Shown here: piece by piece, positions 1 to 57,952 of the stretch
How positions within the stretch are numbered: the first letter of the stretch is position 1
Layout: each line of letters starts with the position of its first letter
Notes under the pieces: model-generated
Told to the model about the DNA's origin: nothing
Databases searched by the model: none
The model's input: the letters and a program-made list of their open reading frames with translations, nothing else
Made by a program: the position numbers and the translations under genes
Assembly (NCBI RefSeq): GCF_051903065.1
Contig: NZ_CP178438.1
Source of the DNA: Escherichia coli
GTDB lineage: Bacteria > Pseudomonadota > Gammaproteobacteria > Enterobacterales > Enterobacteriaceae
Length of the DNA stretch: 64,000 bases
Reading direction: 5' to 3' (one strand)

Positions 1-1
1 C

Positions 2-1450
2 GACTTAAACCCTAACGTCGCCAACCGCAACAAAGGCCCACGCCGTCAGCCGGAAAAGAATGTTTTCACCGATGAACAGATTGAGAAGCTGGAAGAAATC
101 TTCCATTCCTCCATGTTCAACTACCAGCGCCACTGGTGGGAAGCCGGAAAAACCAACCGCATCCGCAACCTGCTGAAGTCACGCCAGATCGGCGCAACCT
201 TCTATTTTGCCCGTGAAGCCCTGATTGACGCCCTGCTGACCGGACGTAACCAGATTTTCCTTTCCGCCAGCAAGGCACAGGCCCACGTCTTTAAGCAGTA
301 CATCATCGACTTCGCCAAAGAAGTGGAGGTGGAGCTGAAAGGTGATCCGATGGTGCTTCCTAACGGTGCCACGCTTTACTTCCTCGGCACCAATGCCCGC
401 ACTGCCCAGAGTTATCACGGCAACCTGTATCTGGATGAATATTTCTGGATACCGAAATTTCAGGAGCTGCGCAAAGTGGCTTCCGGTATGGCTATTCACA
501 AAAAATGGCGACAAACCTATTTTTCCACGCCATCCAGCCTGACACACAGTGCTTATCCGTTCTGGTCCGGTGCGCTGTTCAACCGTGGACGCAACAAAGC
601 CGACAAGGTGGACATCGACCTGTCCCACAGCAATCTGGCCCCCGGCCTGCTGTGCGCAGACGGGCAATACCGCCAGATAGTCACCGTGGAAGATGCGGTG
701 CGCGGCGGCTGTAACCTGTTCGACCTCGACCAGCTACGCATGGAGTACAGCCCGGACGAATACCAGAACCTGCTGATGTGCGAGTTCGTGGACGATCTCG
801 CGTCCGTGTTCCCGCTCAGCGAACTGCAGGCGTGCATGGTGGACAGTTGGGAAGTCTGGACCGACTTTCATGCACTGGCCCTGCGCCCGTTTGGCTGGCG
901 CGAGGTGTGGATCGGTTATGACCCGGCAAAAGGTACGCAGAACGGCGACAGCGCCGGATGCGTGGTGGTGGCACCGCCAGCCGTGCCAGGCGGTAAGTTT
1001 CGCATTCTTGAGCGTCACCAGTGGCGCGGGATGGACTTCCGCGCCCAGGCTGACGCCATCAAAAAACTGACCGAACAGTACAACGTGACCTATATCGGCA
1101 TCGACTCGACAGGTGTCGGTCACGGGGTTTACGAGAACGTGAAAGCGTTCTTTCCTGCCGTCCGGGAGTTTGTCTACAACCCCAACGTTAAAAACGCCCT
1201 GGTACTCAAAGCCTACGACATTATCAGTCACCGTCGTCTGGAGTTTGACGCCGGACACACCGACATAGCGCAGTCATTTATGGCAATCCGTCGCGCCACC
1301 ACCGCCAGTGGCAACCGCCCGACCTATGAAGCCAGCCGCAGCGAAGAAGCCAGCCACGCCGATCTGGCCTGGGCAACGATGCACGCACTGTTTAACGAAC
1401 CGCTGCAGGGCGAGTCCGCCAATACCAGCAATATTGTGGAGATTTTTTGA
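2..1450 (+). CDS. Phage terminase large (ATPase) subunit, P2 gpP-like; 5' end lies off the window (reading frame open to position 2)
   Basis: Translation shows a terminase-type ATPase N-region (KSRQIGATFYFAREA) and no in-frame stop upstream of 113; gene order P then Q as in P2-family phages. Confidence 0.8.
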   Translation, partial: DLNPNVANRNKGPRRQPEKNVFTDEQIEKLEEIFHSSMFNYQRHWWEAGKTNRIRNLLKSRQIGATFYFAREALIDALLTGRNQIFLSASKAQAHVFKQYIIDFAKEVEVELKGDPMVLPNGATLYFLGTNARTAQSYHGNLYLDEYFWIPKFQELRKVASGMAIHKKWRQTYFSTPSSLTHSAYPFWSGALFNRGRNKADKVDIDLSHSNLAPGLLCADGQYRQIVTVEDAVRGGCNLFDLDQLRMEYSPDEYQNLLMCEFVDDLASVFPLSELQACMVDSWEVWTDFHALALRPFGWREVWIGYDPAKGTQNGDSAGCVVVAPPAVPGGKFRILERHQWRGMDFRAQADAIKKLTEQYNVTYIGIDSTGVGHGVYENVKAFFPAVREFVYNPNVKNALVLKAYDIISHRRLEFDAGHTDIAQSFMAIRRATTASGNRPTYEASRSEEASHADLAWATMHALFNEPLQGESANTSNIVEIF

Positions 1451-2475
1451 TGGGAAAGAGTAAGAAAAACCGCGCTGCGGCGACGAATCAGCTCAAGCAT
1501 AAAAGCCAAACTTCAGCCGAAGCATTCAGCTTCGGTGATCCCATTCCAGTACTTGACCGCCGCGAACTGCTGGACTATGTGGAATGCGTACAGACGGATC
1601 GCTGGTATGAGCCACCCGTAAGTTTTGACGGACTGGCGCGAACATTCCGCGCCGCCGTTCACCACAGCTCACCGATTGCAGTGAAATGCAACATTCTGAC
1701 CAGTACCTACATCCCTCACCCGCTGCTCAGCCAGCAGGCTTTTTCGCGTTTTGTGCAGGACTATCTGGTTTTTGGTAACGCCTACCTGGAGAAACGCACG
1801 AACCGGTTCGGTGAAGTGATCGCCATTGAGCCTGCTCTGGCAAAATACACCCGACGCGGGTTAGACCTTGATACCTACTGGTTTGTGCAATACGGTATGA
1901 CAACCCAGCCGTATCAGTTCACGAAAGGCAACATTTTTCATCTGATGGAACCTGACATTAACCAGGAGATCTACGGCCTGCCCAGCTATCTTTCTGCTAT
2001 TCCGTCCGCCCTGCTCAACGAGTCCGCCACGCTGTTCCGCCGCAAGTATTACATTAACGGCAGCCATGCAGGTTTCATCATGTACATGACCGATGCCGCG
2101 CAGAACCAGGAGGATGTGAACAACCTCCGCAACGCGATGAAAAGCGCCAAAGGTCCAGGCAATTTCCGCAACCTGTTTATGTACTCGCCTAACGGCAAAA
2201 AAGACGGACTTCAGATCATTCCTCTGTCTGAAGTCGCGGCGAAGGATGAGTTTTTAAACATCAAGAACGTGAGCCGGGACGATATGATGGCTGCGCATCG
2301 TGTTCCGCCACAGATGATGGGGATCATGCCGAATAATGTTGGGGGGTTTGGGGATGTGGAGAAGGCCAGCCGCGTGTTTGTCCGAAATGAATTGATGCCG
2401 CTTCAAAAATGTCTTGAAGGTATCAATTGTTGGCTAGATGCAGATGTAATAAAGTTTAACCAATACATTTTGTAA
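1447..2475 (+). CDS. Phage portal (capsid) protein, P2 gpQ-like
   Basis: 342-aa ORF immediately downstream of and overlapping the terminase gene; size and position match P2 Q. Confidence 0.75.
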   Translation: MMGKSKKNRAAATNQLKHKSQTSAEAFSFGDPIPVLDRRELLDYVECVQTDRWYEPPVSFDGLARTFRAAVHHSSPIAVKCNILTSTYIPHPLLSQQAFSRFVQDYLVFGNAYLEKRTNRFGEVIAIEPALAKYTRRGLDLDTYWFVQYGMTTQPYQFTKGNIFHLMEPDINQEIYGLPSYLSAIPSALLNESATLFRRKYYINGSHAGFIMYMTDAAQNQEDVNNLRNAMKSAKGPGNFRNLFMYSPNGKKDGLQIIPLSEVAAKDEFLNIKNVSRDDMMAAHRVPPQMMGIMPNNVGGFGDVEKASRVFVRNELMPLQKCLEGINCWLDADVIKFNQYIL

Positions 2476-2486
2476 ATTCCTTCGGT

Positions 2487-2511
2487 AAAAGGCCGCTATG
2501 CGGCCTTTTTT
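2487..2511. terminator. Bidirectional hairpin terminator between portal gene and convergent cargo gene
   Basis: ggccgc-tat-gcggcc stem-loop flanked by A-run and T-run. Confidence 0.6.
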
Positions 2512-3202
2512 AATTTGCGTCATCATTTTTTTTATTTTCTAAAGACTCAATATACCCTCGCAAATTAAATTCTTTATTTTCTCTGAGTTTAGGTCCTTCT
2601 TTAGTATCTGAGCCTCGTTGCTCACGTAAACTTTTATTCAAAGCATCGATCAATTCTTGTCTAGAGATTTCCGTTGCAATTAACCCATCAAAATATCTCT
2701 TCATTTTTCTCGCGCTCTCGGTTACTTTAACAACTTCAAAACCAAGGCAGAGCAAATAAATTAGCGTTGTTATTGTAAATCCAGTATCTACAGAGATAAA
2801 ATAGCCAATATCGAGCACTTTCTTAAGTGATTCCAAGGGCATAACCATGCACAATAAAACCAAAAGCAAACCAGTGCCAAGATATAAATAAGTCATTGAG
2901 TTTCTTTCAATCAGCTTGAAGTACTCATCTCTCTGACCTTCAAAGCTAGCAACAATCTTAGGGGGTGTTTTTTTTGGAAGATCGAGGTCTCGAATTTTAT
3001 CCTGAAGATCTACGTATCTTTTAATAAGTAAACCGACTATGGCAGCAGTGATTAATGAAAGCGTTTTCGATAAAATATTGCCCATTTCCACGAGCACATT
3101 TAATTTATAATTAATCAGATATACTACACTCGATGCCAATACTCCACTTAAAATGGATAATATTATATAAAACGCATATCGCTCCACTCGATTTTTAATC
3201 AT
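2510..3202 (-). CDS. Hypothetical 4-TM membrane protein (candidate effector of a two-gene cargo cassette)
   Basis: 230-aa ORF with about four hydrophobic helices and a charged C-terminal tail; AT-rich; overlaps upstream gene by 4 bp. Confidence 0.6.
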   Translation of the reverse strand: MIKNRVERYAFYIILSILSGVLASSVVYLINYKLNVLVEMGNILSKTLSLITAAIVGLLIKRYVDLQDKIRDLDLPKKTPPKIVASFEGQRDEYFKLIERNSMTYLYLGTGLLLVLLCMVMPLESLKKVLDIGYFISVDTGFTITTLIYLLCLGFEVVKVTESARKMKRYFDGLIATEISRQELIDALNKSLREQRGSDTKEGPKLRENKEFNLRGYIESLENKKNDDAN

Positions 3203-4188
3203 GGATTTATTACCCCATCAGCTAACAATCTGAGCAACCACTCTACCATTTCCTCACAAACGCTATCAATAACAGGCATCCCATTATTATATTCAATATT
3301 GACGGTGTCTTTTATTTGTATTTCGTCATTTCTTAAAATACCTGCGCCTTTTAACTCTATGGTTAATGCTTCATCACGGTTATCGATAAGAGCCTCCGTA
3401 ATTTTCCTTAAAATATTTTGTTCCTCATCATTAGCTTTATATTTATACCCTATAGAAACATCTATCGTTAAATGTTCTCGAGACATGTCAACTGAAACAT
3501 CCTGTGATGCATTGTGTTTACGCAACACATCAACTCTGTGCTCACCGATAAGAGATTTCAATAATTCACTAGCGACATCATCTACTCCATCTCCATAAGA
3601 GGATAGAGGCAGCTTCAAGCTTACATTTTTTACATTGCTACGCATCAGCAATTCATTAGTCAAACGTAAATTTCCTGCTTGTAATATAATAAAGTTATCA
3701 ACATCAACCCTTAGATTATCCTTCAAAATGTAATTAATATAATTTTCAATATCTTTAATTCTAATTGCACGACTTTGCAATATTATTACATGATTTTTGA
3801 CAATCCCGATATATGCAACACTATCTAAATATTCTTTCGGAACACTTCCAGTAAGCTTTAATGCTTCATAAGCCAATCGATTTTTTTTATATTCTGAAAC
3901 ATCAAAAACTGGCACACTATTCCCTGGCTCAATATAAACTATTTCACCAAAAAATATACCATTCCGTTCGAAGGAATCAGATAAAACCATGTGCGCGTGG
4001 CTGCTAACACAAGGGTCACTATCTCCAGTTTCAAGATAGTAAATTCTGTCCTCAACGGTTGGAAACTTGTGATTAACAATTTCGTTCATACGATTCTGCA
4101 AATCACTTGCTAAAAGAGCATCCTTTTTAGGAAGCATTACTGCGTGTCGATAGTGTAACGCTTTAACTTTTGAGGGATTACTGGCCAT
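3199..4188 (-). CDS. Hypothetical soluble protein (candidate sensor partner of the 4-TM protein); alternative TTG start at 4230
   Basis: ORF 3199..4230 in track; the ATG at 4188 (MASNPSKV) has a GGA 7 nt upstream; AT-rich; no family recognised. Confidence 0.55.
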   Translation of the reverse strand: MASNPSKVKALHYRHAVMLPKKDALLASDLQNRMNEIVNHKFPTVEDRIYYLETGDSDPCVSSHAHMVLSDSFERNGIFFGEIVYIEPGNSVPVFDVSEYKKNRLAYEALKLTGSVPKEYLDSVAYIGIVKNHVIILQSRAIRIKDIENYINYILKDNLRVDVDNFIILQAGNLRLTNELLMRSNVKNVSLKLPLSSYGDGVDDVASELLKSLIGEHRVDVLRKHNASQDVSVDMSREHLTIDVSIGYKYKANDEEQNILRKITEALIDNRDEALTIELKGAGILRNDEIQIKDTVNIEYNNGMPVIDSVCEEMVEWLLRLLADGVINP

Positions 4189-4270
4189 GAAACATCCATT
4201 ATTAATCTTAGATTTAGTGATATGGAACAATCATACAATCTGTTAATTTTTCTTGCCACAACTCCTTTTC

Positions 4271-4300
4271 GCGCGCTCGTATCCCCGCCACGCCTGCCCG
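4271..4300 (-). other. Putative phage cos site (cohesive-end region)
   Basis: Reverse complement reads GGCGTGGCGGGGATACGAG, resembling the P2/186 cohesive-end sequence as recalled from memory. Confidence 0.35.
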
Positions 4301-4498
4301 CTTTATGTAGTGGTTTTCATGCAGGTGCATGATCTACGCAAAAGCCCGCCAGTTCTGGCGGGCCTTAGCAAAAACGATCCTCAAACGATCATGCGATCTC
4401 ATGCGGCATAGACATGCACTACAGAGCTAACGCCTCGCAAGGGCTCGTTGTTCAACCTTGCTGACGCCAGAAACAAGTTCAGACGCCAGCAACGTTTC

Positions 4499-4732
4499 TT
4501 AATGCAGCCAGCTGTCGTCTTCCCACACCTTCTGCATAATTTTCATCACTTGTTTTCTTTCTTCGTCCAGTTGCAGTCCGGTCAGTTCCACACCGTTAGA
4601 GCTACCTTTGCGGATACGAATTACCGTTTTGGGATACAGGGGGCGCAGATTGCGGTAAAGCTCGGATTCAAGGGCGTCCAGTGTAGACTGGCTAATCTTC
4701 TGCTCTTTATCGATCATTATTTCAATGCGCAT
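4499..4732 (-). CDS. DinI-like protein (possibly the C-terminal part of a frameshifted tum-like antirepressor gene)
   Basis: Translation MRIEIMIDKEQ...WEDDSWLH resembles the DinI family; the longer ORF 4499..4804 overlaps the upstream small ORF in another frame. Confidence 0.6.
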   Translation of the reverse strand: MRIEIMIDKEQKISQSTLDALESELYRNLRPLYPKTVIRIRKGSSNGVELTGLQLDEERKQVMKIMQKVWEDDSWLH

Positions 4733-4742
4733 AAAAGTCACC

Positions 4743-4931
4743 TCAGCTGATGACATCCATTGAGCGGTTGTATTCGTGGGTTCTGATTTTTGCCATGAGT
4801 TCATCTGTCAGTTCAGAAACCCACTGCAGAGCCAGCCCCTTCTCTTCATCACTACACTCACTAGCCGCTACAAGCTTAAGAAAAAAATCAATGCGCTGGA
4901 GCTTCAAAGACTCCAAAAAATAGTCCTGCAT
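4743..4931 (-). CDS. Small SOS-regulated ORF (possible N-terminal part of a tum-like gene)
   Basis: 62-aa ORF directly downstream of a LexA box; with the DinI-like ORF spans about 144 codons. Confidence 0.4.
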   Translation of the reverse strand: MQDYFLESLKLQRIDFFLKLVAASECSDEEKGLALQWVSELTDELMAKIRTHEYNRSMDVIS

Positions 4932-4972
4932 CTTTCCTCCTATGACACCAAAGCAATACTGTATATATAATC

Positions 4973-4992
4973 ACTGTTTATATTTACAGTAT
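4973..4992. promoter_or_regulatory. LexA (SOS) box upstream of the tum/DinI-like operon
   Basis: CTGT-N8-ACAG core (ctgtttatatttacag) at 4974..4989 in an AT-rich promoter region, preceded by a CTGT half-site. Confidence 0.6.
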
Positions 4993-5083
4993 ATAATAAT
5001 CTTACTGATGTAAAACGTTTTTTTACGTTCATCAGCCTGATATGCCTGGTATTATTAAGAGCACGAATTGTTAACCCGCGTAA

Positions 5084-7498
5084 TTAATACAGGTTTCGCC
5101 ACTTATCATCTTCCTGCAAACGCTGGTTCCGATAGAAGATACGCAGGCCTGCTCCTGACGGAATACTGCCACCGCGAAGGAGTAAATCGACCTCTTTCTC
5201 GCTGCCATCAAATCCTCTGGACTTCAGTTCATAGACGAGCTGCTGTCGCTGATGATCTGTAATTCGCTGTTTGTAGTCTTTACGCCGTTTCGGCTTAACC
5301 AGGCGTAACCTTGCTGCCAGTTCCCGGCGCTCTTTTTTGCTCATACTGTGCAGATAATCGTGCAACTCCTTGTCATCCATGCGGGTAATATCCGTTCTGG
5401 TGTCCCCATCAGCTGATTTATCTTTCTCCTGTTGGTTCAAATTTTCAGCAAGGGGACAGTTATTGCCACGAGTCCAAGGGGCGCAAGCGCCCTGGTCGGC
5501 TACCGCCTCCTGAACGTCAACGGCTTTACGAACCATTTTCCACTTCACTGCATGAGTGCAGATCTTGCCCTCTGCAATGGGTGACCAGATGCCATAAATA
5601 CGAATGCCGTGATCGCCATAGGCGGTCGGCTCTTCGTTAATTTCATAAGCAGTTCTGATGAGGTGATATTTGCGGGGAACCAGTACGCCACCCTGCTTCA
5701 TGATGTAAGTGGCAAAACAACCAGCATCAGCAGCAGCCAGGATGGCATCAAGGCGCGGGTTATCCAGTACCGGCGCACCTGCTTTTTTGTCGCCCTGTTG
5801 CCTTGCCGCCTGACCAGCCAGCAATCGCAGTTCACGGTAAGCCTGACGCCCCGGAATACCAAAGAAGCGGAATTGCTGAACACGATGCAGAGACGCCCAG
5901 GCATTAACGTATTCAGCGTTATCACGCAGGGATTTACCCGTTTCCTTGCTGATCTCGCCAGCCAGACCACGCCCGTCAATGTTCTTACTAATGTATTTCG
6001 CAATGTAGCTTGTCGGCGTTCCTTTGCGCGGGTTTATCAGCTCAGACTTAAAGCGTGGCCCCGTGTTATTGCCCAGCTCCTCGCGGTCTTCACGGATGGC
6101 AAACTTACGCAACAATGCAGTAATGGCGCGGCGGTCTTTTTTGCGCATGAAACACAACAGGTGCCAGTGAACTGTGCCGTCATGATGCGGCTCAGCCACC
6201 CGCACGCCATACCAGCGCAACCCGGCTTTGTGCATAGCCTTACGAAATGCAGCAAACATGCCGACCAGATAATCGCTGCTTTGTCTTACTGTCGCGTTGG
6301 TCCAGGTCGGGTTTGGCCTGCCGTTATTTAGCGTGGAATGGAAACGTGACGGACAGGTGATGGTGTAGAAAACGGCGCAGTCACCACGCATTTCCGCGAT
6401 AAGCTCCAGGCCTTTAACACAGGCCATCATCTCGTTGCGGCGATGCGCCGGGTTGCTGCTGCTGGCGTTTACCACATCCTCCATGTTCAGCGTGTCGCCG
6501 TCTTCGTTCACCAGTTCATGAGAACGGAAAAACTCCAGCGACTTACGGCGCTGCTCACGTTTATGCATCACGGCTTCATAGCTAACATAGGGAGATGCTT
6601 TTTTGCTGACCAGGCAGACAGCACGCAACTGCTCTTCCCGCAATTCGCAACGCATCTTCCATAATTTCCGATACCACCAGTCGGCGCACAGCATACGCGC
6701 CAGCGAACCCGGAATGAGTTCATAAGGCACAGGTTTGCGGCGGTTTCTTTTCCGGCGGAGTTGCTCAAACGCAGGCGGTATGACATCCAGTCGCAGGGTT
6801 TCTGCAGCCACCTTTTCCCATGTCTTGCGGATTTCTTCTGGCTTAACATCATCGGAGGCGTACAAATCACCACAAGCGGCATCAAGACACATGCTCATAT
6901 GCGCAGCGACAAGGGTAGACAGGCGTTTCACCTGATCCTGACTCATTTCAGGCAGGATCAGCAGACCGTCCAGCCCCTCATGGCTTGCCATAAAACGAAA
7001 AGATGCAGATAGCTGGCTGTCGCGTACATGCTCCAGTCGTTCCAGACATGGCTTAATCGTCTCACGCAAATAGCGGGAATAAGCCTTTGGCCTGCCCATG
7101 CTGCTGAAATATTCAATACGTTGCATCAGCGGCTTGCTGATATGGGAAGGCTGGGCGTTGACGTCAGCCAGAATGACCATGTCTGGATTAAAACGCTGCT
7201 GCTCATGCGCCATCTTTGCCCGGCTAATGAGCTTATCCTGCTCCATTTCGCGTTGGACAGGATCACGGGATTCATTAAAGAAATAATGCTCCCAGACCTG
7301 ATCACTCAGTGCCTCGCGGCGCAGTTGTTCCTGCTCGTTATCGGTAGCGTACAGAGTGATCAGGTTTGAAAGCGCAGAAACCGGCGCAACTTCCGCCGGG
7401 TCCAGATAAGGGTTAATGGCCTTTTTCGGGCTGTTCCATGAGAACGCTGCGGCAGCCTCGTTAAAGCCGCAGCAGTTGTTCATATCGGCATGACTCAT
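5084..7498 (-). CDS. Phage replication initiation protein (P2/186 gene A-like rolling-circle endonuclease)
   Basis: 804-aa ORF in the early-operon position of P2-like phages. Confidence 0.75.
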
Positions 7499-8352
7499 GC
7501 ACGTACTCCGTACACGGCAGAACTATCCACGCCACGCGAATAATCAAATCCCACCCAGCAGCGCGGCCCGGAAACAGCAATGATTTCTGTTGCTGATTTA
7601 CCCTCGCCAGCTGCCACACCGATGCTGCGTTTTACCTTGATATAGTGGTGAATAAAATTGCGATACAGCGAACGGATCAGGGATGTGTCACTGTTAGAAA
7701 CAATGACCGGATGTCCTTCTGATGACCGATGTTCAAGAACGGATGCCAGGTGATACTGATCATCTTCAGTGAAACCATCAGTGTGATAGCCGGAAAACGT
7801 ACCGTCATACGGCGGATCGCAATACACCACATCCCCCGCCTTCAACATCGCCAGCGTTTCATCAAAGCTGGCGCAGATAAACGTTGCTCGCTGGGCTTTT
7901 TCTGCAAATGCGCGAATTTCTTTTTCAGGGAAATACGGATTTTTATAATTACCGTAGGGAATGTTGAAATGCCCGCTCTTGTTATAGCGACATAAACCAC
8001 GGTAACCGTGACGATTGAGATACAGGAAATATACCGCTTTCATGAAATCAGTAATTTCAGTTGAGTAATTAAACTCCTGCCTTATGTTGTAATAAGCCAC
8101 CTCCCTGTTTGCGATCTCAAATAAAACTCTGGCGCGAGATATAAACGATTCACAATCAGCAGCAACCTTTTTATAGAGGTTGATTAAATCAGGATTAATA
8201 TCCGCAACAAGATAGCTGGGGTACTCCGTCTCCATCATCACTGCACAGGAACCCGCGAAAGGTTCAACCAGTCGCGGGCCAGCAGGAAGGTGTTTTTTCA
8301 GTTCGGACATAATTGCGGTTTTATTTCCCGCCCATTTCAGGATGGTGCTCAT
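7495..8352 (-). CDS. DNA adenine methyltransferase (Dam-like, phage-encoded orphan MTase); start may lie further upstream at 8412
   Basis: ILKWAGNK N-terminal motif and DPPY catalytic motif in translation. Confidence 0.8.
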
Positions 8353-8576
8353 ACAGCACCTCCGTTGTAATGTTTGCCTTTCAGCTCTGCGATTTCCTGA
8401 CAGGTAATGCAAAGCTGCACTCCAGGAATGGCGCGGCGGCGTGCTGGCGGAATTGGCACTTCACATTCAATGCAAAGCACGCGAGACACGCCCGGTGTTT
8501 TGGCACGGGCAGCACGGATATGGCGCTGGCGTTCTTCTTCAACGCGCTGCTGTACGAGATCCATTGCATCAGCCAT
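8349..8576 (-). CDS. TraR/DksA-family C4 zinc-finger protein
   Basis: 75-aa ORF with CxxC...CxxC spacing (CIECEVPI...CITCQE). Confidence 0.6.
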   Translation of the reverse strand: MADAMDLVQQRVEEERQRHIRAARAKTPGVSRVLCIECEVPIPPARRRAIPGVQLCITCQEIAELKGKHYNGGAV

Positions 8577-8815
8577 TAGTGGATCTCCTGCGCTTCGTTC
8601 TGGATTGCTTCAGCGGTCACACGCAGCAGTTCTGCCGCTTCGACGTGGTTTAGCTGGCGGGATGTGATATGACACGCAAGACTATCAAGGCGGGCAGCCA
8701 TTGCTTCAGCCCTTGCCCGGCGTTCTTCCAGACGAGCCTCTGTCAGTAAAATATTAAGCCCTACGTCATCCGGTCCGGTTTTAGTCGTGAGGGTTTCAAT
8801 ATTACGCATAATCAA
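8576..8815 (-). CDS. Hypothetical prophage early protein
   Basis: 79-aa ORF in operon context, translationally coupled to neighbours. Confidence 0.4.
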   Translation of the reverse strand: MIMRNIETLTTKTGPDDVGLNILLTEARLEERRARAEAMAARLDSLACHITSRQLNHVEAAELLRVTAEAIQNEAQEIH

Positions 8816-8876
8816 TTCTCCTGAATTTAGATAAAGGGATGCCCGGCGGGTTTACGCCATTAATTTCATTAGTTGG

Positions 8877-9218
8877 TTAATTCGGCATGGTTAGCCGTCT
8901 GGGAAATAAGCTCACTACTGCACGAAAATGATTCATTGCTTTAATCAACTCCCGCTTTTCGTCAGTGGTCAGCTCATTAATGCTGATGCTATGACGTTCA
9001 GCTGGAATTTTTGCCATAAAGAATATGGCAGCCAGTGCCCGTTTATTTTGTTCGCTATTAATATCCCGTGGATCACGCATATCTTTAATAAACCGTTCAA
9101 GCTCTGACTCAATATTAAGACCAAAAACTTTCGCCCTTAACTCCGCAATATGATTAAGTCCATTCAGGCGTTCACCGGGGCTTAATGGAACAGTCGCCGC
9201 AGCGCCTTCAATAGCCAT
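8877..9218 (-). CDS. Hypothetical prophage early protein
   Basis: 113-aa ORF in early operon. Confidence 0.4.
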   Translation of the reverse strand: MAIEGAAATVPLSPGERLNGLNHIAELRAKVFGLNIESELERFIKDMRDPRDINSEQNKRALAAIFFMAKIPAERHSISINELTTDEKRELIKAMNHFRAVVSLFPRRLTMPN

Positions 9219-9412
9219 TTGTTCCCCCGTTTTTTCGTAGATAGTTCTGCCAGCAATTCATCTTGTGAACGGCACGGATGCCAGCGTTTACCATCCTCAC
9301 CCATGATCCAGCCGTGACCGTAGTGCATTGCCGGGCTTTGTTTAACCAGCAGCGATGCAAATGATGGTTCTTTCGTAAGCATAAGCACCTCACAGCAAAC
9401 CGAATGAAGCAC
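9182..9412 (-). CDS. Hypothetical prophage early protein
   Basis: 76-aa ORF downstream of the CII-like gene. Confidence 0.35.
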   Translation of the reverse strand: MLHSVCCEVLMLTKEPSFASLLVKQSPAMHYGHGWIMGEDGKRWHPCRSQDELLAELSTKKRGNKWLLKALRRLFH

Positions 9413-9899
9413 CGAGGCCAGTCACGGTATCAACTGCACTCGCCATCGCAGGGTTAGCCTGTAAACGGGCCTGCAGTGAAACAGCAGCCAGCGCCATCAG
9501 TCGTGTTACAGAGTTAATGCTGCTGATAGCATCACGACGACCTGCACTGGTTTTTACATCGCCAGATACCGCACCTGCAGCAACACGCCCGATCTCTGCG
9601 GTTGCACTCATGACGTAATGCGGCAGTTTCTCTTTTGCTACCTCATTAATCGGTACACATGGCAGGCAGTGAATCTGTGCCAGAAAACCATCTATCAGCG
9701 TTGAATCTTCAGTCAGATCGGTAAGCAGCCAGATTTCTGGCGCATTGAGCTGATGCGGTTGATCTGGGTTGAGTTTGTTTCGCAGAGTCTGGACATTCAT
9801 TCCTGCACGTTCTGCCAGCTTCGCCATATTGTGACGAAGTGCAAAAGCTCTACAGGCTTCATCAAAATGCGGGTGTTTGGAAATCTTATAATCAAACAT
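9390..9899 (-). CDS. cII: 186 CII-like transcriptional activator
   Basis: 169-aa translation closely resembles coliphage 186 CII as recalled (MFDYKISKHPHFDEACRAFA...GASFGLL). Confidence 0.7.
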   Translation of the reverse strand: MFDYKISKHPHFDEACRAFALRHNMAKLAERAGMNVQTLRNKLNPDQPHQLNAPEIWLLTDLTEDSTLIDGFLAQIHCLPCVPINEVAKEKLPHYVMSATAEIGRVAAGAVSGDVKTSAGRRDAISSINSVTRLMALAAVSLQARLQANPAMASAVDTVTGLGASFGLL

Positions 9900-9931
9900 G
9901 CTACCCCCTTAGAAAGTTCTCATAATTGAAC

Positions 9932-10174
9932 TCACTTACCAACAATGACGCGGAAGTTGGAATGACCTAGGGATTCACGGACCTGATCGGTTTTGTACAT
10001 TAAATAACGCAGACTTACGCGGCCTTTGTTTTTTTCTTTCTTGACCATGTATTTAGCAAGCTGACCATGGTGAATTTTTTGATACACGGAGCCGCGGGAG
10101 ATACCTTCCCATTCCGCGAACTCTGCTGGCGTAGCCATCTCTTTTGGTACACGAATTGAAATATCAGTGCTCAT
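9932..10174 (-). CDS. Apl/Cox-like excisionase and lytic-switch HTH protein
   Basis: 80-aa HTH ORF first in the early operon, divergent from the repressor gene. Confidence 0.6.
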   Translation of the reverse strand: MSTDISIRVPKEMATPAEFAEWEGISRGSVYQKIHHGQLAKYMVKKEKNKGRVSLRYLMYKTDQVRESLGHSNFRVIVGK

Positions 10175-10233
10175 AGTGCAGTATCTCCCGATTAAGGTTT
10201 GGTTTACGTCGTTTTATCTCGTTTTACTTGATT

Positions 10234-10276
10234 CAATATTTGATACATCGAGATACTACGATCCAATATTTGATAC
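10234..10276. promoter_or_regulatory. Putative operator repeats in the CI/apl divergent promoter region
   Basis: Two copies of CAATATTTGATAC spaced 30 bp apart. Confidence 0.4.
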
Positions 10277-10293
10277 GTCAACAGGATTAAAAA

Positions 10294-10926
10294 ATGATAC
10301 AGGTAAAGGCTGGAGAGAATACAGGGGGAAGAGAGGCTATCCATAGACTAATGGCAGCCTATGATTTCAAGTCCAGACAGCAACTTTGCGATCACTTAGG
10401 CGCATCAAAAAGCACCATGGCAAACAGATACTTAAGAGATAGTTTTCCTGCAGAGTGGGTGATTCAGTGCGCCTTGGAAACAGGAGTTTCTTTACTGTGG
10501 CTAACCACCGGACAGGGAGAGCCAGGTCCAAACATTGAACCTAAAAAAAATATCAATTCCGTGAACTCCAGCAAAGTTGTACCTCTTTCTGAACTAGTAT
10601 CTCCTGAAATTGACAAGGCGACTCTCAACGGTGGTTTATTGGTCGATGCTGGAAAAGCAATCATTGATAGCAGCATACTCCCCTCAGACTCAAGCAACCT
10701 ACTGCTGGTGACTACTTCTGGTGATTCTTATTTAATAGATCGCAACCAAACACCACCAGTAAATGGTATGTGGTTAGTCGATATCGACGGGATAAAAAGC
10801 ATTGTTAAATTGACTCGGCTCCCGGGAAACAAATTAGTAGTGCATCAGGATGATTCATCGTTTGAGTGCGGTCTGGATGACATTGAGGTAGTAGGCCGCG
10901 CACTGAAAATCATTAAGAGCCTTTGA
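10294..10926 (+). CDS. cI: Prophage CI-like immunity repressor
   Basis: 210-aa ORF with N-terminal HTH, located directly upstream of int as in 186. Confidence 0.6.
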   Translation: MIQVKAGENTGGREAIHRLMAAYDFKSRQQLCDHLGASKSTMANRYLRDSFPAEWVIQCALETGVSLLWLTTGQGEPGPNIEPKKNINSVNSSKVVPLSELVSPEIDKATLNGGLLVDAGKAIIDSSILPSDSSNLLLVTTSGDSYLIDRNQTPPVNGMWLVDIDGIKSIVKLTRLPGNKLVVHQDDSSFECGLDDIEVVGRALKIIKSL

Positions 10927-10927
10927 T

Positions 10928-11941
10928 ATGACCATCAGAAAACAGCCGAACGGAAAATGGTTGTGTGAGTGCTATCCCAATGGACGCAATGGCAAGCGCG
11001 TGCGTAAGCAATTTGCTACGAAAGGCGAAGCCATTGCGTTTGAAAGCTTCACAATGGAAGAAGTGAATAAAAAACCGTGGTTGGGTGAAAAGGATGATCG
11101 GCGACGCCTATCAGAATTAATTGAGCTTTGGTATTCCCTGTATGGTCAAACACTCGCAGACCCCAAGCGCCTCATGGCGAAACTTAGAATTATCTGTAAT
11201 GGTCTAGGCGATCCCATCGCCTCAGAACTGACAGCTGGTGACTTTACAAAATACCGCGAAGCACGGTTAAAAGGTGAAATACGAAATGAAGATGGCACGC
11301 TTATGTCGCCCGTTAAGCCCCGCACGGTAAACCTTGAACAGCGCAATCTATCATCTGTGTTCGGTACATTAAAAAAACTAGGACACTGGTCAGCACCAAA
11401 CCCGCTGGCAGGACTTCCGACCTTCAAAATTGCCGAAGGTGAGCTGGCTTTTCTTTCCACAGACGAAATCAAGCGCCTGTTGGCGGCATGTGCTGAATCT
11501 CAAAACCCTAGCTTACTAATGATTGCAAAAATATGCCTAGCTACTGGCGCACGGTGGAGTGAAGCCGAAAATCTGCAGGGCCACCAAATATCGAAATACC
11601 GAATTACTTATACAAAAACAAAAGGCAAGAAAAACAGAACAGTACCCATATCACAGGAGCTGTATGACGAACTCCCAAAGAACAGAGGGAAGTTATTCTC
11701 ACCATGTAGAAAAGCCTTTGAACGAGCAGTAAAACGGGCAGGTATAGATCTACCGGATGGCCAATGCACCCACGTGCTGCGACATACGTTTGCTAGTCAC
11801 TTTATGATGAATGGCGGGAACATACTTGTGCTAAGGGATATTTTGGGACATTCGGATATCAAGATGACCATGGTTTACTCACATTTCTCACCAGATCATC
11901 TTGAAGATGCCGTTACTAAGAACCCATTAAACTTGATATAA
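10928..11941 (+). CDS. int: Tyrosine integrase, P2 family
   Basis: 337 aa; C-terminal HxLRHT...Y catalytic region; resembles P2 Int. Confidence 0.9.
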   Translation: MTIRKQPNGKWLCECYPNGRNGKRVRKQFATKGEAIAFESFTMEEVNKKPWLGEKDDRRRLSELIELWYSLYGQTLADPKRLMAKLRIICNGLGDPIASELTAGDFTKYREARLKGEIRNEDGTLMSPVKPRTVNLEQRNLSSVFGTLKKLGHWSAPNPLAGLPTFKIAEGELAFLSTDEIKRLLAACAESQNPSLLMIAKICLATGARWSEAENLQGHQISKYRITYTKTKGKKNRTVPISQELYDELPKNRGKLFSPCRKAFERAVKRAGIDLPDGQCTHVLRHTFASHFMMNGGNILVLRDILGHSDIKMTMVYSHFSPDHLEDAVTKNPLNLI

Positions 11942-11954
11942 AACAGCCAAAATT

Positions 11955-13712
11955 CTATTTCATCAAGTAATCCAATTCATCCTTCATAGGTATAACTTGC
12001 TCATAAAGTCTATGGTAGGATTTTCCAATTGCGCCCCTAAATTGAATAAGTTTAGGGGAAAAGCTACCGATATTAATAATATGTTCTTGCGCTATACCAG
12101 GATATGGATCGATAAAAATAATCTCTGTCATACCTAACTGATAAGCTTTTTTAGCACAAAGTTCACAAGGGCTAGCTGTAGTATATAGTTTCCCTCCATT
12201 AATACCGACCCCACCATATTTGGCCAATTGCAAAAAAGCATTCTCCTCTGCGTGTAATGCACGGGTATGCACTTGATTCCCTTTCTTTTCATCATCAAGG
12301 CTGTTGTGAATATCTTTAAAACAATATGGCAAATTAAGTCCTTTAAAAACAGTAGAACTTGAATCACTCGCCCTTATTTTTATTAAATTTTCTTTAACTT
12401 TACTCCTAAATTTTGTATTACTTCGTTCGTACAGGCTATATGTTCCCTCATCAAAATCATGCAATAACCCATCAAATGACCTCATAGAACAAGGAACTTG
12501 ACCTTTTGCTACATCGTTCCAACCAACTGACTTGATAGAGTTATCATTATCTGTCACAACCGCCCCTACTTGCCTAGATATACATCCAGAATTTAGTTTT
12601 ACAGTATATGCAACTTGCATAACCCTTTCCATGGCGGTAGGAGATATTAATCCAGGGTGTTGCATTAATGATACATACCACGCAATTTGTGCTTTGAGAA
12701 AATTATTATTATCAAATTCTTTTTTAGGGTTAAAAAAATGTATATCTGAAATTTCAATGCATTTTTTTACATTAGGATTAGTAAGATGATTATACTCGCC
12801 ATCTCCTTTACCAGATTCTTCATCATTAATTTTCTTTATCTGTTCCTCTGAGAACTTATGTAATTTCTTTAAATATCTGGTTCGATGTTCATCTGGTGCA
12901 TTTATAGAAACCAGATGGAATGCAGCATATCTATCTTTGAAGAATTTAGCTTCATACGGGTTACGTATCGCATCAATGACTATATACGCTTTATTATTCT
13001 TTACTTTTCTAATTATTTTAATAACACGATTAATTGTTTCAGGTAAATGAAAAACAGCCTTTGGAATAAAGTCTTGATTTTCATAATCTACATCAACCTT
13101 CCCTATTCTTCTAATTGACTTTCCTGCTGACTGATATAGCTCAATATATAAACCTGGCTCTAGTTCATTTAATTCCCTTTTAAAATCCCGTGTAAATTTT
13201 CGAGTAAGAGTTAATATCCTAATAAAGGTATCTTTCCCCCTGCCTTTAAAGTCAATCTCATCATCATGATTAAGAAGATTTTTTATCACCTCAAGATATT
13301 TTATCTTCAACAAACTTTTAGCGAACACACCATTAACAACCAGTTTCTTGGCTACCTTAAAGGAAATCGAATTTTCTTTTTTATCGGGGATTTTACTTGC
13401 AGAAAACTGAATGAATTTAGCTAAGGCCGATGGAGATAAAAGGAGCAAATATATTGAAATGAGATCACTGACCTTTATCGAATAGAAGTTCTTCCAATGA
13501 GTCTCTGCAAAATTTTTTACTATTTCATAACGCCGCAAATCCAATCCTTTATAATACTCAGCCAAGACGTTACTATCTGGAAAAGATATTTCTTTTTGTT
13601 CTAAAATATTTGCTGCAGTAGTACATCCTGAGCCAGTTCTCCCAGTTAAACCAATAAGAATAAATTGACTATTTTCTAAAAAAAGCTCACTAATAAATTT
13701 GTGTTCTCTCAT
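11955..13712 (-). CDS. P-loop nucleotide-kinase / cytidine-deaminase fusion protein (candidate antiphage dCTP-deaminase-type cargo gene)
   Basis: N-terminal GLTGRTGSGCTT Walker-A-like motif; C-terminal HAEENA...PCELC zinc-deaminase motif; AT-rich; lies between int and attR. Confidence 0.65.
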   Translation of the reverse strand: MREHKFISELFLENSQFILIGLTGRTGSGCTTAANILEQKEISFPDSNVLAEYYKGLDLRRYEIVKNFAETHWKNFYSIKVSDLISIYLLLLSPSALAKFIQFSASKIPDKKENSISFKVAKKLVVNGVFAKSLLKIKYLEVIKNLLNHDDEIDFKGRGKDTFIRILTLTRKFTRDFKRELNELEPGLYIELYQSAGKSIRRIGKVDVDYENQDFIPKAVFHLPETINRVIKIIRKVKNNKAYIVIDAIRNPYEAKFFKDRYAAFHLVSINAPDEHRTRYLKKLHKFSEEQIKKINDEESGKGDGEYNHLTNPNVKKCIEISDIHFFNPKKEFDNNNFLKAQIAWYVSLMQHPGLISPTAMERVMQVAYTVKLNSGCISRQVGAVVTDNDNSIKSVGWNDVAKGQVPCSMRSFDGLLHDFDEGTYSLYERSNTKFRSKVKENLIKIRASDSSSTVFKGLNLPYCFKDIHNSLDDEKKGNQVHTRALHAEENAFLQLAKYGGVGINGGKLYTTASPCELCAKKAYQLGMTEIIFIDPYPGIAQEHIINIGSFSPKLIQFRGAIGKSYHRLYEQVIPMKDELDYLMK

Positions 13713-13934
13713 TTCGCACCTGTTACGTTATAACACAAGTCTCTTCCATGTTGTATTTATTAGTATTTATTAAAAAACAAGAAATTGCAACATAGCGGTA
13801 ACAATACACACACCAAGAAAATGGCGGCAACTTGGCGGCAGAGCTTTAAAAACGTATAAAACGGATAAACACAAAACAATACCAACCAACTGTTTTTGAA
13901 AACAAATTATTGTTTTCATTATAATATAAATGGT

Positions 13935-13979
13935 ATGTAGGAATTTCGGACGCGGGTTCAACTCCCGCCAGCTCCACCA
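13935..13979 (+). other. Partial duplicate of ssrA (tmRNA) 3' end: prophage/island attR
   Basis: ATGTAGGAATTTCGGACGCGGGTTCAACTCCCGCCAGCTCCACCA matches the tmRNA 3' terminus (T-arm, acceptor, CCA) with no upstream tmRNA body. Confidence 0.85.
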
Positions 13980-14108
13980 ATCATGATTGGACGGTGTAAA
14001 AACAACACCAACAAAAACAGGAAGTTAGAAGTCTCAGCAGGACACCGACCAGACGGTGAGGAGACATAAAAGGATACGCAAAGGAGCCGCGGCTCCTGGT
14101 GACATGAA

Positions 14109-14130
14109 AGCCCACAGATGTGGGCTTTTT
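14109..14130 (+). terminator. Rho-independent terminator hairpin
   Basis: gcccaca-ga-tgtgggc stem followed by TTTTT. Confidence 0.6.
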
Positions 14131-14139
14131 CGTTGATGG

Positions 14140-17100
14140 TCAGAACGACCAGTTCACACCAGCCACCGCGTTCCACGGGGATTCCACATCGGCACCGTTG
14201 CTATACCCCACCCCGAGATGCCCGCTTAACGTACTGCTGAATGAGGCTTTAATACCTGCCTGGTATATTTCACGTCTGCCCGACAAATCATTGACGAAAT
14301 TACCGTCATTATTCACCTTCACCCGGTTATCATCGACAAATTCTTTGCGCACAGCCGCCTTCAGCCACGGCTCAACTTCCATACCGTTCCCCAGACGCAT
14401 GTTGTAACTCAGCGTTGCACCCAGTTCACGATATATACTGCGGGTATCGACTGATTTCGATTCCATGCCATTGGATAAATGATATTCAGGGTTATCAGCG
14501 GTGAACCCCGTTAACGATGCATACGGCGTCAGGTTCCAGTTACCATCGGTAAATCGCATCCCGGTTTCAATGTGACCGCCCAGCCCGTTGCTGCGATAAC
14601 TGCCGTTGGCGGCTCCACCGCTGCTCATTTTACCGGCTACGTTACTTTCAAAACGGTTCAGCTTCACGACACCGTCCAGATAAAAACCACTTTCATGTTC
14701 CCAACTGGCATAGCCGCCCAGAGAATAACTGCCCACACTGCCATGTCCTCCGCGATCAAAACCGATATGTGAATGGGAATAGCCCATAAAAGCGCCCAGC
14801 GTGGCAATCCCTTCAGGAATATCATTACGACTGTCGATTCCCACTGTCATTCCGGTCAGCGTCTGCTCAAACCCGGCACCCGCATCGGTGGTGACATTAT
14901 TACGGGTGTTATACGTCGCCCCCCAGACATTATTGTTGTGTGGACTCGCTTTCATTATGTTCAACCGCTCGCGAATACTGTTTAGCTCAGCATCAAATAC
15001 CAACGGTAATGTTGCAGCCATATTGAGTACGGCTGCCGTAGAAGGCGTGATGCGTTTCTCCGGAACGGGTGTCGGCGTTGGATCGGGAGTCGGGTCTGGT
15101 TTCGGATCCGGTTTTGGGTCTGGTTTTGGATCTGGCTTCGGATTTGGGTTGGGATTTGGGTTGGGATCCGGGTTGGGTTTGACATCATTGGTCAGGTTCC
15201 AGTTGCTGTTGCCATCGCTTTTCAGGACATACTCATAGGTCCCAAGATCAACGAAACCGCCAGTATTGCCCAGCGAAAACGAAGCATCCCCTCCCCCTGT
15301 TTTCACCAGCGTCATCGCGTCGTCAGACTGAGGGCTGACGCCGGTATCCTGAACAAAGATTTTAAAATTACCAGTGGCGTTGTTGTTGACGACCAGTTGA
15401 TCGCCCCGGGAGCCAGCAACGTTGGTATGCAGGTAGAAATTACCGCTACCGGAAAGTTCATTGGTTGTCAGCGTATTGTAGATACCGTTAGTTGTGGCAG
15501 GCGCTGCTGTTTGTGCTGATAAATAAACATCACCGTCGTTGAGTAGCAAACTGTTTACTCTATATTCGCAGTTGCTGGTACCTGCACAGGAATTATTGCT
15601 GTTAAGCCAGACACTGCCCCGGCTGGCAGCCGTCAGGTCGGCAAGCGTGGTATCGACGCCATTTCCCAGAGTTAATGTCGCGCTATCGGTAATCCGAACC
15701 GCCCCTTCAAGTTTTACTGGCGTAACATTATCCCGTGGCGTGATTAACGACAGGCTTCCTGTCGCGCCACTGACCGATGCATCCGCCAGCGTACCTGCGT
15801 AGATGATTGCCGTCCCGCCAGCGACCTGGAGATCTTCTGCCCGGGCCAGAGGCTGAAACTCATCTTTTGACCGCCCAAGGGTATATTGCCCGCCAGAGTT
15901 AACCTTTGTAGCGGAGTCCTGACCCAGGTTTTGCATTGCACCACCCTTGCCAACCGTGGAGTCATGGGCTTCGGTACCTGCTAATACCAATAAATTACCA
16001 CCATTTTCCAGCAACATATTGGTCGCTAAATTTCCGGCAATGGAAAAGGTGCCGTACTGGTGAGTACCGCTGATTTCAATACCGTTAGCCGTGCTCGTCT
16101 GGAGAGCGGCACCGCTGTTCTGGACGATATCTGTCGCTTTGCCATTATCGTTGACTGTCAGCGTTCCGCCTTCATTGATCGTTGTTTTTATTGCTTCTCC
16201 GTTAGCTGAAACTGTTTGTATTCCGCCGTCGTTAATTGTTGTCTCATTCGCCACACCCTCGACGATTTGTTCACCGCCGGTGAGCGTCGTGCCTGTCGCA
16301 GTGGCTTTTGTTTTGACGATCTCCCGTCCGCCCGTATTGACCTGTGTTTTGTCAGAAGAGGTGTCTGACTCTACGGTTAACACGCCGCCATTTGCCAGCA
16401 GGATATTGTTCGCCGCACCCTGCTCGATGCTGAACGCGACGCCATCCGCGCGTGTTCCTGTGACCCGCGTCGCCCTGGTGGTTGCAACCAAAGCGCCCTG
16501 CCTACTCTGCTGTATCCCCGTTGCGCTGCCTTTCTCCCACACATCGAGTGTGCCGCCGTCATTAAGCACCGAGTTTTCAGCCAGACCGCCCTCATTAACT
16601 ACCTGTGAACCCCCATTAATAATGGAACCTTCCGCTGTCCCGTTTGCCATAATTTGTTGTAGGCCAGAGACGATATCGGTATTGATTGCCTTACCATAAT
16701 TCTGAACGGTTTGCGTGCCACCATTGATGTGTGTTTTCTCTGTTGACCCACCATCAACAATTTGTTCACCACTTTCGATATTTGCCTCAGTGGCTAATCC
16801 ATATACCGTTTGCTTGCCACCTTTGATATTTGCTTTATCAGAAGTGGCACTGGCATATATTGTTTGGGTGCCAGCACTATTGAGTACAGTGCCAACATCT
16901 TTTCCATAAACATCCATTTTGCCGTTGGCATTAATAATCGTATCAACTGCCCGGGAACCAGTGACGACTGTTAATGAGCCAGCGTTTTCCAGCACTACAT
17001 TTTTAGCTTCTGAATTCCTGATGTAGAAAGCATCACCATAACTGTTGGTTCCTTCGATAAGTGTTCCGGAGGTCGTGGAAGCAATTAATGCGCCGCCGGA

Positions 17101-17470
17101 TTGTTGCTCAACATGCTTAGCCTCACCACCGTCCTGAACCTCCAGAACGCCGCCATTATTAAGTCTGGTGCTATCTGTTTTAGCCTCCTTCTGGACAATC
17201 AGCTTACCGCCAGCATCAATGGTAGTATTTTTCGCCGAGGTTTTAGCCACTACCGTCAGTTCGCCGGTATTTTCCAGCACAACATAATTAGCCTCCCCTC
17301 CGGTAATAGTGAAGTGAGAGAGCTTGTTGTATCCTTCGATATCAGTCCCTGCACCCGTGTTGGCAACTAAAGCACTGCCCGTCTCCTGGTTAACCCCATG
17401 TGCAATACCGCCGGTATAGACAATCAGCGAGCCTCCGGCGCTAATATTGCTGCCAATTGCCGTACCATCT
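14140..17470 (-). pseudogene. ypjA: Autotransporter adhesin (YpjA-like), 5'-truncated by IS903
   Basis: Repetitive passenger domain, PNPDP/KPDP linker, C-terminal beta-barrel ending in WSF; ORF lacks signal peptide and runs into the IS903 end. Confidence 0.7.
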
Positions 17471-18527: not shown

Positions 18528-18583
18528 GGGTGATGCTGCCAACTTACTGATTTAGTGTATGATGGTGTTTTTGAGGTGCTCCA

Positions 18584-18859
18584 GTGGCTTCTGTTTCTAT
18601 CAGCTGTCCCTCCTGTTCAGCTACTGACGGGGTGGTGCGTAACGGCAAAAGCACCGCCGGACATCAGCGCTATCTCTGCTCTCACTGCCGTAAAACATGG
18701 CAACTGCAGTTCACTTACACCGCTTCTCAACCCGGTACGCACCAGAAAATCATTGATATGGCCATGAATGGCGTTGGATGCCGGGCAACAGCCCGCATTA
18801 TGGGCGTTGGCCTCAACACGATTTTACGTCACTTAAAAAACTCAGGCCGCAGTCGGTAA
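18584..18859 (+). CDS. insA: IS1 InsA
   Basis: [21 protein letters not shown]... translation. Confidence 0.9.
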
Positions 18860-19281: not shown

Positions 19282-19296
19282 GTTGGAGTCATTACC

Positions 19297-56811: not shown

Positions 56812-57952
<1,141 letters not shown>

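Follow-up and report, generated by a model that had tools for sequence, protein, structure and literature searches.

A 64,000-nt stretch of the Escherichia coli chromosome (contig NZ_CP178438.1 of RefSeq assembly GCF_051903065.1; hereafter the window) opens within a prophage, and this element, positions 1–13979, is the subject of the present analysis. It is very probably the right arm of a temperate P2-family phage that combines a Felsduovirus backbone of the RE2010/Fels-2 kind with 186-type regulation, an integrase-mediated insertion at the 3′ end of ssrA, and two cargo modules that would protect the lysogen. The prophage type is ordinary and well precedented, and the only non-routine content is its two low-GC cargo loci. 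Novelty is confined to one of these, a cassette of two genes, A and B, that lies between the portal gene and the cohesive-end site, cos (2510–4188). We lean, if only slightly, towards reading this cassette as a member of a large family of RexAB-type abortive-infection systems which sequence searches leave unlinked to RexAB. A preliminary description of the same DNA had listed the phage genes from the terminase to the P2-type integrase, and all of them are present in the order it gave, as judged by open reading frames (ORFs), Pfam, and PHROGs; the two low-GC defence loci had escaped that inventory.

Integration at the 3′ end of ssrA

The P2-type terminase ATPase gpP and portal gpQ are co-oriented and lie beside a P2/186-type cos site, one of the features by which membership of the P2 family (Peduoviridae) is recognised. 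The opposite end of the element is marked by an exact copy of the 3′ end of the transfer-messenger RNA (tmRNA) gene ssrA at 13935–13979, with no tmRNA body in the window: ARAGORN detected no tmRNA, Rfam returned only a sub-threshold partial match, and no further ssrA sequence is present. An exact match of 45 bp cannot arise randomly in 64 kb. From 13935 to at least 20000, the window matches the genome of E. coli 23CRST027 with 100% identity, and in that genome an intact ssrA adjoins the same flank directly, free of any prophage. The intact, unoccupied ssrA on an identical flank identifies the 45-bp copy as attR, as the preliminary description had proposed, and the genes beyond 13979, from the ypjA remnant on, are chromosomal. 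The shared flank takes in this remnant, IS903B, IS1A, and a truncated amylase gene; because the identical arrangement is found in the prophage-free strain, it either predates the prophage or is independent of it. In the window, ypjA (an adhesin-like autotransporter gene, region 14140–19300) lacks its N-terminus and is followed by a frameshifted IS903B, IS1A, and a 5′-truncated alpha-amylase-like gene.

The tmRNA locus is a recognised integration hotspot in E. coli (PMC10121019). The attR copy retains the intact ssrA 3′ sequence ...CGCCAGCTCCACCA, so that excision should restore a functional ssrA. Fels-2 and SopEPhi are likewise P2-integrase phages at ssrA that retain ...CGCCAGCTCCACCA, whereas the occupant of ssrA in K-12 is CP4-57, the excision of which deletes T357 (PMC10107115); the same paper thereby bears out two statements of the preliminary description, that phages of the Fels-2 type use this site and that a different element, CP4-57, fills it in K-12. 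A CP4-57-like or P4-like satellite was considered as the occupant and rejected, as the element carries a P2 terminase, a portal, and gpA.

Affiliation, mosaicism, and completeness

Nucleotide searches returned no phage covering at least 80% of the region. Among annotated phages, Salmonella phage RE2010 (Felsduovirus) comes nearest, with 92.9% nucleotide identity over 67% of the query and protein identities of 94% for the integrase (Int), 98% for gpA, 95% for CII, 99% for the DinI-like protein, 97% for Dam, and 82% for the portal. The corresponding values for coliphage 186 (Eganvirus) are far lower: 55% for Int, 33% for CI, 30% for Apl, 70% for CII, 82% for Fil, 35% for gpA, and 60% for the portal. 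The element is organised like 186 but belongs to the lineage of Fels-2 and RE2010. The earlier label of a 186-like P2-family prophage is sound with respect to the family and the regulatory layout, but not to descent, the element being much nearer to the RE2010/Fels-2 Felsduovirus lineage than to 186; 186 proper was rejected on account of protein identities of just 30–82% and a different attachment site.

The likeness to RE2010, Fels-2, and SopEPhi extends to the same gene order (with 82–99% identity for the portal, DinI-like, orf62, gpA, Dam, CII, and Int products), to the ssrA 3′ end as target with an intact copy of its terminal sequence, and to cargo at the same two loci, between portal and cos and between int and the attachment site. 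RE2010 differs in that an AIPR gene and a gene for a 401-aa hypothetical protein replace the RexAB-like pair and the dCTP deaminase gene, respectively, and its CI/Apl region is only partly alignable. Phage 186 shares the CI/Apl/CII/Fil architecture, a LexA-controlled SOS operon with a DinI-like product, a homologous cos, gpA, and a P2-type Int; it differs in integrating in ileY rather than ssrA, in encoding a single 146-aa Tum, and in having no Dam.

Two E. coli strains, G5 and 127, harbor the same backbone at 95–98% nucleotide identity. The backbone is mosaic, with breakpoints at ∼2410, ∼4270, and ∼9900. Strain 2017.17.03CC has a P2-like prophage at rcdA that matches positions 1–9900 at 96.7% identity, and for positions 4270–14500 the prophage at ssrA in strain 127 shows 98.4% identity. 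The segment that varies relative to ssrA-type relatives is 2410–4269, so that homology to them ends at 2409 and the portal gene shares the variability of the cargo over its last ∼66 nt. Related P2-like prophages (our loci L003, L004, and L016–L018) display at least two further variable cargo loci on the same backbone. One lies between tail genes S and V, where L003 has a SIR2 family protein and a hypothetical protein and others have different hypothetical proteins; the second, between CI and Int, holds a SNIPE/T5orf172 protein or an ASCH-containing set in relatives, while CI adjoins Int without an insert in the window.

By comparison with 186, Fels-2, and these relatives, the complete prophage would read ssrA (attL), ogr, tail, lysis, capsid, P, Q, cargo, cos, SOS operon, the replication gene A, early genes, CII, Apl, CI, Int, cargo, attR, ypjA. 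Such an arrangement is present in strain G5, the relative whose left side was read: a full prophage of ∼35 kb lies between an intact ssrA and ypjA, in the order ssrA, one hypothetical gene, ogr, tail, lysis, capsid, P, Q, cargo, DinI-like, A through CII, Apl, CI, Int, dCTP deaminase, and ypjA. The capsid, lysis, tail, and ogr/B late genes are seen both in G5 and in L003. Two observations weigh against the reading of a temperate phage with this pair of cargo modules. The window begins within the terminase gene, with the left arm, attL, and ssrA beyond its edge, which bears on completeness and inducibility. Moreover, among 5,426 complete E. coli genomes, ∼220 carry this integrase type, six the module of int and dCTP deaminase, and two the 2476–4450 cassette, but none carries the exact combination.

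It is very unlikely, in our estimate, that the element is a decayed remnant in which the right arm alone survives beside attR and the structural genes and attL have been deleted or rearranged. Besides the absence of any visible sequence to the left, decay would accord with the adjacent chromosome, which is rich in insertion sequences (ypjA is truncated by IS903B and IS1), and with the lineage itself, as G5 has an IS1 in a tail-fibre assembly gene and a frameshifted dCTP deaminase gene. Against decay, all genes in the visible 14 kb are intact ORFs of the same lengths as in RE2010 and other relatives, the terminase reading frame is open up to the edge of the window, and the backbone in G5 is part of a full-length prophage.

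The cassette between portal and cos

The cassette forms an island (2510–4230) of 33–35% GC in a backbone of ∼50% GC, set between the portal terminator and cos and reaching within ∼45 bp of the latter. This cos-adjacent gpA–gpQ locus is a defence hotspot in P2-like phages (bioRxiv 10.1101/2021.01.21.427644). Alternative cargo at the same locus consists of an S8 peptidase with an AAA ATPase in strain 127 and of AIPR in RE2010. In the window, the cargo fills the gap from the portal terminator to cos and leaves just ∼45 bp of sequence conserved to the portal side of the cut. In 186, by contrast, the cargo gene orf97 lies on the tum/replication side of cos, as do tin and old of P2. A weakly supported sigma-70 promoter-like site precedes gene A; such sites are not more numerous in the region than expected from shuffled sequence.

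Even with the threshold relaxed to E ≤ 10, Pfam, PADLOC, and NCBIfam yield no match to either protein, and the only PHROG match is that of protein A to phrog_3482, a family with no assigned function. The A/B family falls outside the Pfam, PADLOC v2, and NCBIfam libraries searched, and 95 sampled members of the A family gave isolated noise matches only against Pfam and PADLOC. The family is nonetheless sizeable: the protein A profile recovers at least 717 clusters (at 50% identity) at E ≤ 1e-3 and 462 at E ≤ 1e-10, nearly all of 320–350 aa. Conserved residues of protein A include R48, N132/H133, E148, and W317. A related-locus search in IMG/VR with the close A alignment yielded just four close relatives.

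The same pair occupies the same hotspot in P2-like prophages of other E. coli, Klebsiella, and Citrobacter, and in Aeromonas hydrophila it lies beside the primase of a P4-like satellite. More distant relatives of A (22–24% identity) are encoded directly 3′ of cI and are followed by a transmembrane gene in both the lambdoid phage Perceval and an Acinetobacter phage, which is the rexA–rexB position; in a Stx2a phage and in SfIV, distant relatives are found between Q and the lysis/stx region. The family circulates among P2-like phages (cos-adjacent), P4-like satellites, and lambdoid phages (cI-adjacent and Q–lysis moron sites). The gene downstream of A encodes a protein of four transmembrane segments in a 2+2 layout in all ten readable contexts; in SfIV, this partner gene is shortened beside a transposase gene. 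In Acinetobacter phage phi1_092021 (L002, 3001–4508), a 333-aa homolog of A (∼21% identity) comes directly after cI and precedes a 167-aa protein with four transmembrane segments. Its GenBank label is ‘DefenseFinder protein’, and the PADLOC RexA model gives no match to it; the protein A family may already carry a DefenseFinder name.

Is the cassette a RexAB-type system?

The case for a RexAB-type system is structural and syntactic. The AlphaFold2 model of protein A has a predicted local distance difference test score (pLDDT) of 69.5 and a predicted template-modelling score of 0.66. In Foldseek, the top match of this model in the Protein Data Bank (PDB) is lambda RexA (8TWQ), with an E-value of 1.8e-6, a probability of 1.0, and a full-length alignment, and the predicted model has the two-domain fold of RexA. 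RexA is the top structural match by two methods, followed by RdgC and CHL4/IML3, which are the fold relatives reported for RexA itself (PMC11077077). Protein B has hydrophobic segments at residues 9–32, 42–61, 102–130, and 135–160 by hydropathy, in a 2+2 layout with a charged helical C-terminal tail, and its AlphaFold2 model is all-helical (pLDDT 77). The pair shares with lambda RexA/RexB and Pseudomonas putida RexABpp a soluble protein of ∼30–37 kDa with a RexA fold, a following, co-transcribed inner-membrane protein with four transmembrane segments, and carriage by a prophage; in addition, distant relatives of the A family occupy the cI-adjacent rex position of lambda. From the models and the gene syntax, the cassette would be of RexAB type, outside the RexA and RexB sequence families, and we infer an anti-phage function. 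Protein A is probably DNA-binding.

Several results weigh against a RexAB-type assignment. Profile comparison of the A family by hhalign with lambda RexA alone, with a 21-sequence RexA profile, and with the ‘RexAB-like’ protein of Rousset gave probabilities of 0.2–1.1%, and hmmsearch of the A profiles against PDB sequences gave no match. The PADLOC RexA and RexB models recover the lambda proteins but not A or B, and protein A falls outside the RexA family (PF15969). The B family shows no signal to RexB by hhalign; the protein B model has no match at E ≤ 0.001 in BFVD by Foldseek, with RexB absent from the matches listed, and proteins with four transmembrane segments are generic. No published phenotype was found for the A/B family. 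The arrangement also departs from that of lambda: protein B has 230 aa with a charged C-terminal extension of ∼70 aa, as against 144 aa in RexB, and the pair has its own putative promoter and adjoins cos, ∼6 kb from cI, with adjacency to cI of the rex type seen only in the distant relatives.

The likeness of A to RexA might also be an artefact of modelling, or reflect convergence on an alpha/beta DNA-clamp fold that is common (RdgC/CHL4-like), and the pair would then be a different, unnamed system. The nil sequence signal, even profile against profile, the moderate pLDDT of protein A, and Foldseek TM-scores of just 0.33–0.40 are consistent with this explanation, which we judge quite unlikely.

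A published parallel in genomic setting is system 22 of Rousset et al., named ‘RexAB-like’, which is also a pair of a soluble and a multi-transmembrane protein in the cos-adjacent hotspot of the P2/P4 phage–satellite community (bioRxiv 10.1101/2021.01.21.427644). The table of that paper, however, assigns the Pfam RexA domain to the soluble protein of this system, which has no similarity to protein A (hhalign probability 0.2%). In the part of the preprint supplement that was available, no cassette peptides were found. Kiwa was rejected as an identity for the pair, with no DUF4868 and no PADLOC match to KwaA or KwaB; the gene order of Kiwa is opposite to that of A and B.

The cassette might instead serve the phage’s own biology, as a modulator of the lysogeny–lysis switch or as a holin or superinfection-exclusion membrane protein paired with a regulator that binds DNA; or it might be an addiction module resembling a toxin–antitoxin pair, in either case with no role in abortive infection. 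Lambda RexA acts on the bistable switch without RexB (PMC11077077), gp30/gp31 of phage Butters show the opposite division of roles between soluble and membrane protein (PMC12894663), and the A/B family has no known phenotype of its own. Yet the locus holds cargo that is exchanged among near-identical phages, and most tested cargo there is defensive; at the equivalent P4 hotspot, 11 of 16 tested systems protected against at least one phage (bioRxiv 10.1101/2021.01.21.427644). The presence of the cassette in a satellite and in lambdoid moron positions (Q–lysis in a Stx2a phage and in SfIV) speaks against a role tied to the regulatory circuit of a single phage. We regard a phage-serving or addiction role as unlikely.

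If the cassette is of RexAB type, it would act like lambda RexAB or P. putida RexABpp. Protein A may sense an infection cue, possibly phage DNA or a DNA–protein intermediate, and would then activate B. Activated B, the gene for which is translationally coupled to A, would damage or depolarise the membrane such that the infection is aborted.

The dCTP deaminase locus

The second cargo gene, in an island of 33% GC between int and attR, is an intact gene for a 585-aa anti-phage dCTP deaminase. Its score exceeds the cutoff of 400 bits set for NF041025, a curated equivalog for which the match is full-length, and both zinc motifs of the deaminase (H-x-E and P-C-x-x-C) are intact, as HAE at residue 487 and PCELC at residue 515. 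The protein is one residue off WP_001513130, a RefSeq protein that occurs in other prophages at ssrA. The presence of an unrelated gene, encoding the 401-aa protein, at the same position in RE2010 identifies the int|att interval as a variable locus. By family membership, the enzyme is expected to deplete dCTP during infection. Residues 21–32 form a P-loop-like N-terminal motif, GLTGRTGSGCTT, in which a cysteine takes the place of the canonical Walker A lysine (no match to GxxxxGK[ST]).

Lysogeny switch and SOS module

A switch of 186 type is present, in which CI and Apl/Cox diverge and CII (CP76) and Fil come after Apl/Cox. The SOS module lies beyond the replication genes, next to cos, and its LexA box, CTGTTTATATTTACAG, matches the layout of the 186 record, in which LexA acts at p95 upstream of tum. 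Only two perfect LexA boxes occur in the 64 kb; the second, CTGTATGCTCATACAG at 57935–57950, lies upstream of recA as expected and serves as an internal positive control. The ‘tum/DinI module’ of the preliminary description holds in part: the window has a LexA box and a 77-aa DinI-like ORF, but not a single 146-aa Tum as in 186, the N-terminal part of which has no detectable counterpart in the window; a separate, conserved 62-aa ORF is found there instead.

By analogy with 186, Fels-2, and their relatives, CI would maintain lysogeny. DNA damage would cause LexA to leave the box at 4974–4989, and the operon of the 62-aa and DinI-like genes would then be expressed; its product may act as Tum does in 186, where Tum inactivates CI. 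Excision by Apl and Int would follow, leaving ssrA intact again.

Feature coordinates and neighbouring genes

The coordinates and evidence for each feature are collected in Table 1. The site that had been called cos-like is a genuine cos, since it aligns at 81% over the annotated cos junction of 186.

Table 1. Features of the prophage segment (positions 1–13979 of the window) with their supporting evidence
Feature	Position	Strand	Evidence
Terminase ATPase subunit (P2 gpP homolog)	1..1450	+	5′ end cut by window edge; Pfam Terminase_6N 1.8e-65, Terminase_6C 1.2e-49; 65% aa identity to 186 homolog
Portal (P2 gpQ/186 W homolog)	1447..2475	+	Pfam Phage_portal; 60% to 186 W, 82% to RE2010 portal
Bidirectional terminator-like GC-rich hairpin with T-runs on either side	2487..2509	.	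Between portal and cassette; position of terminator tW in 186 record
Cargo gene B, predicted inner-membrane protein, 230 aa	2510..3202	-	4-bp overlap with gene A; RexB-like by architecture alone
Cargo gene A, soluble, 329 aa, predicted RexA-like fold	3199..4188	-	AlphaFold2 model and Foldseek
Putative sigma-70 promoter-like site upstream of gene A	4230..4259	-	GTGGCA-18-TATGAT, 9/12 matches
cos cohesive-end site	4276..4294	-	GGCGTGGCGGGGATACGAG compared with 186 cos GGCGTGGCGGGGAAAGCAT
DinI-like protein, 77 aa, homolog of 186 Tum C-terminal half	4499..4732	-	Pfam DinI 1.3e-22; 41% to Tum residues 71-145; 98.7% to RE2010 gp13
62-aa ORF, first gene of SOS operon	4743..4931	-	phrog_698, 3.6e-38; kept in RE2010 and E. 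coli relatives
LexA box	4974..4989	.	Exact CTGT-N8-ACAG; ∼40 bp upstream of 62-aa ORF; counterpart of 186 p95 operator
Rolling-circle replication endonuclease gpA	5084..7498	-	Pfam Phage_GPA 2.4e-126; 97.8% to RE2010
Dam-type (D12-class) N6-adenine DNA methyltransferase	7495..8412	-	Pfam MethyltransfD12 1.5e-75
Early lytic small genes: TraR/DksA zinc finger (zf-dskA_traR), DUF2732, DUF5347, Fil (Phage_186_Fil)	8349..9412	-	Pfam
CII (CP76) lysogeny-establishment activator	9390..9899	-	Pfam Phage_CP76 1.2e-43; 70% to 186 CII
Apl/Cox-like excisionase-repressor	9932..10174	-	phrog_6912 and phrog_575 (excisionase/Cox families); 30% to 186 Apl
CI immunity repressor, 186 type	10294..10926	+	Pfam Phage_CI_repr and Phage_CI_C
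P2/HP1/186-type tyrosine integrase	10928..11941	+	Pfam Int_N and Phage_integrase; 55% to 186 Int, 53% to HP1 Int, 94% to RE2010 Int
Anti-phage dCTP deaminase	11955..13712	-	PADLOC dCTPase 2e-146; NCBIfam NF041025 420.5 bits
attR core	13935..13979	+	Exact copy of last 45 nt of ssrA; homology with empty-site genome begins exactly at 13935

Elsewhere in the window, the interval between emrB and luxS contains two overlapping genes of normal GC content on the plus strand (46417–48233). The first encodes a 235-aa protein with an RNA_ligase domain (PF09414, 6.5e-28), and the second a protein of 370 aa whose C-terminal domain is AAA_33 kinase-like. K-12 is not known to have such genes between emrB and luxS. 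The two could be an RNA-repair or defence pair.

Biological significance

The prophage itself is nothing new, as P2-integrase phages at ssrA (Fels-2, SopEPhi, and RE2010) and the swapping of cargo next to cos are well documented. Its value is that of a clean worked example, with an exact attR, an isogenic empty site, two defence cargo loci, and the three mosaic breakpoints. The A/B cassette offers more: at 1.7 kb it is compact, a putative promoter of its own precedes it, and it belongs to a sizeable unannotated family. To our knowledge, the mechanism of Rex exclusion is still unresolved 70 years on. A RexAB-type function of the cassette would extend the Rex exclusion paradigm to a far broader range of phages and satellites, and, if true, would mean that the narrow Pfam family for RexA greatly understates how common Rex-like exclusion is among prophages of enterobacteria, Vibrio, Aeromonas, and Acinetobacter.

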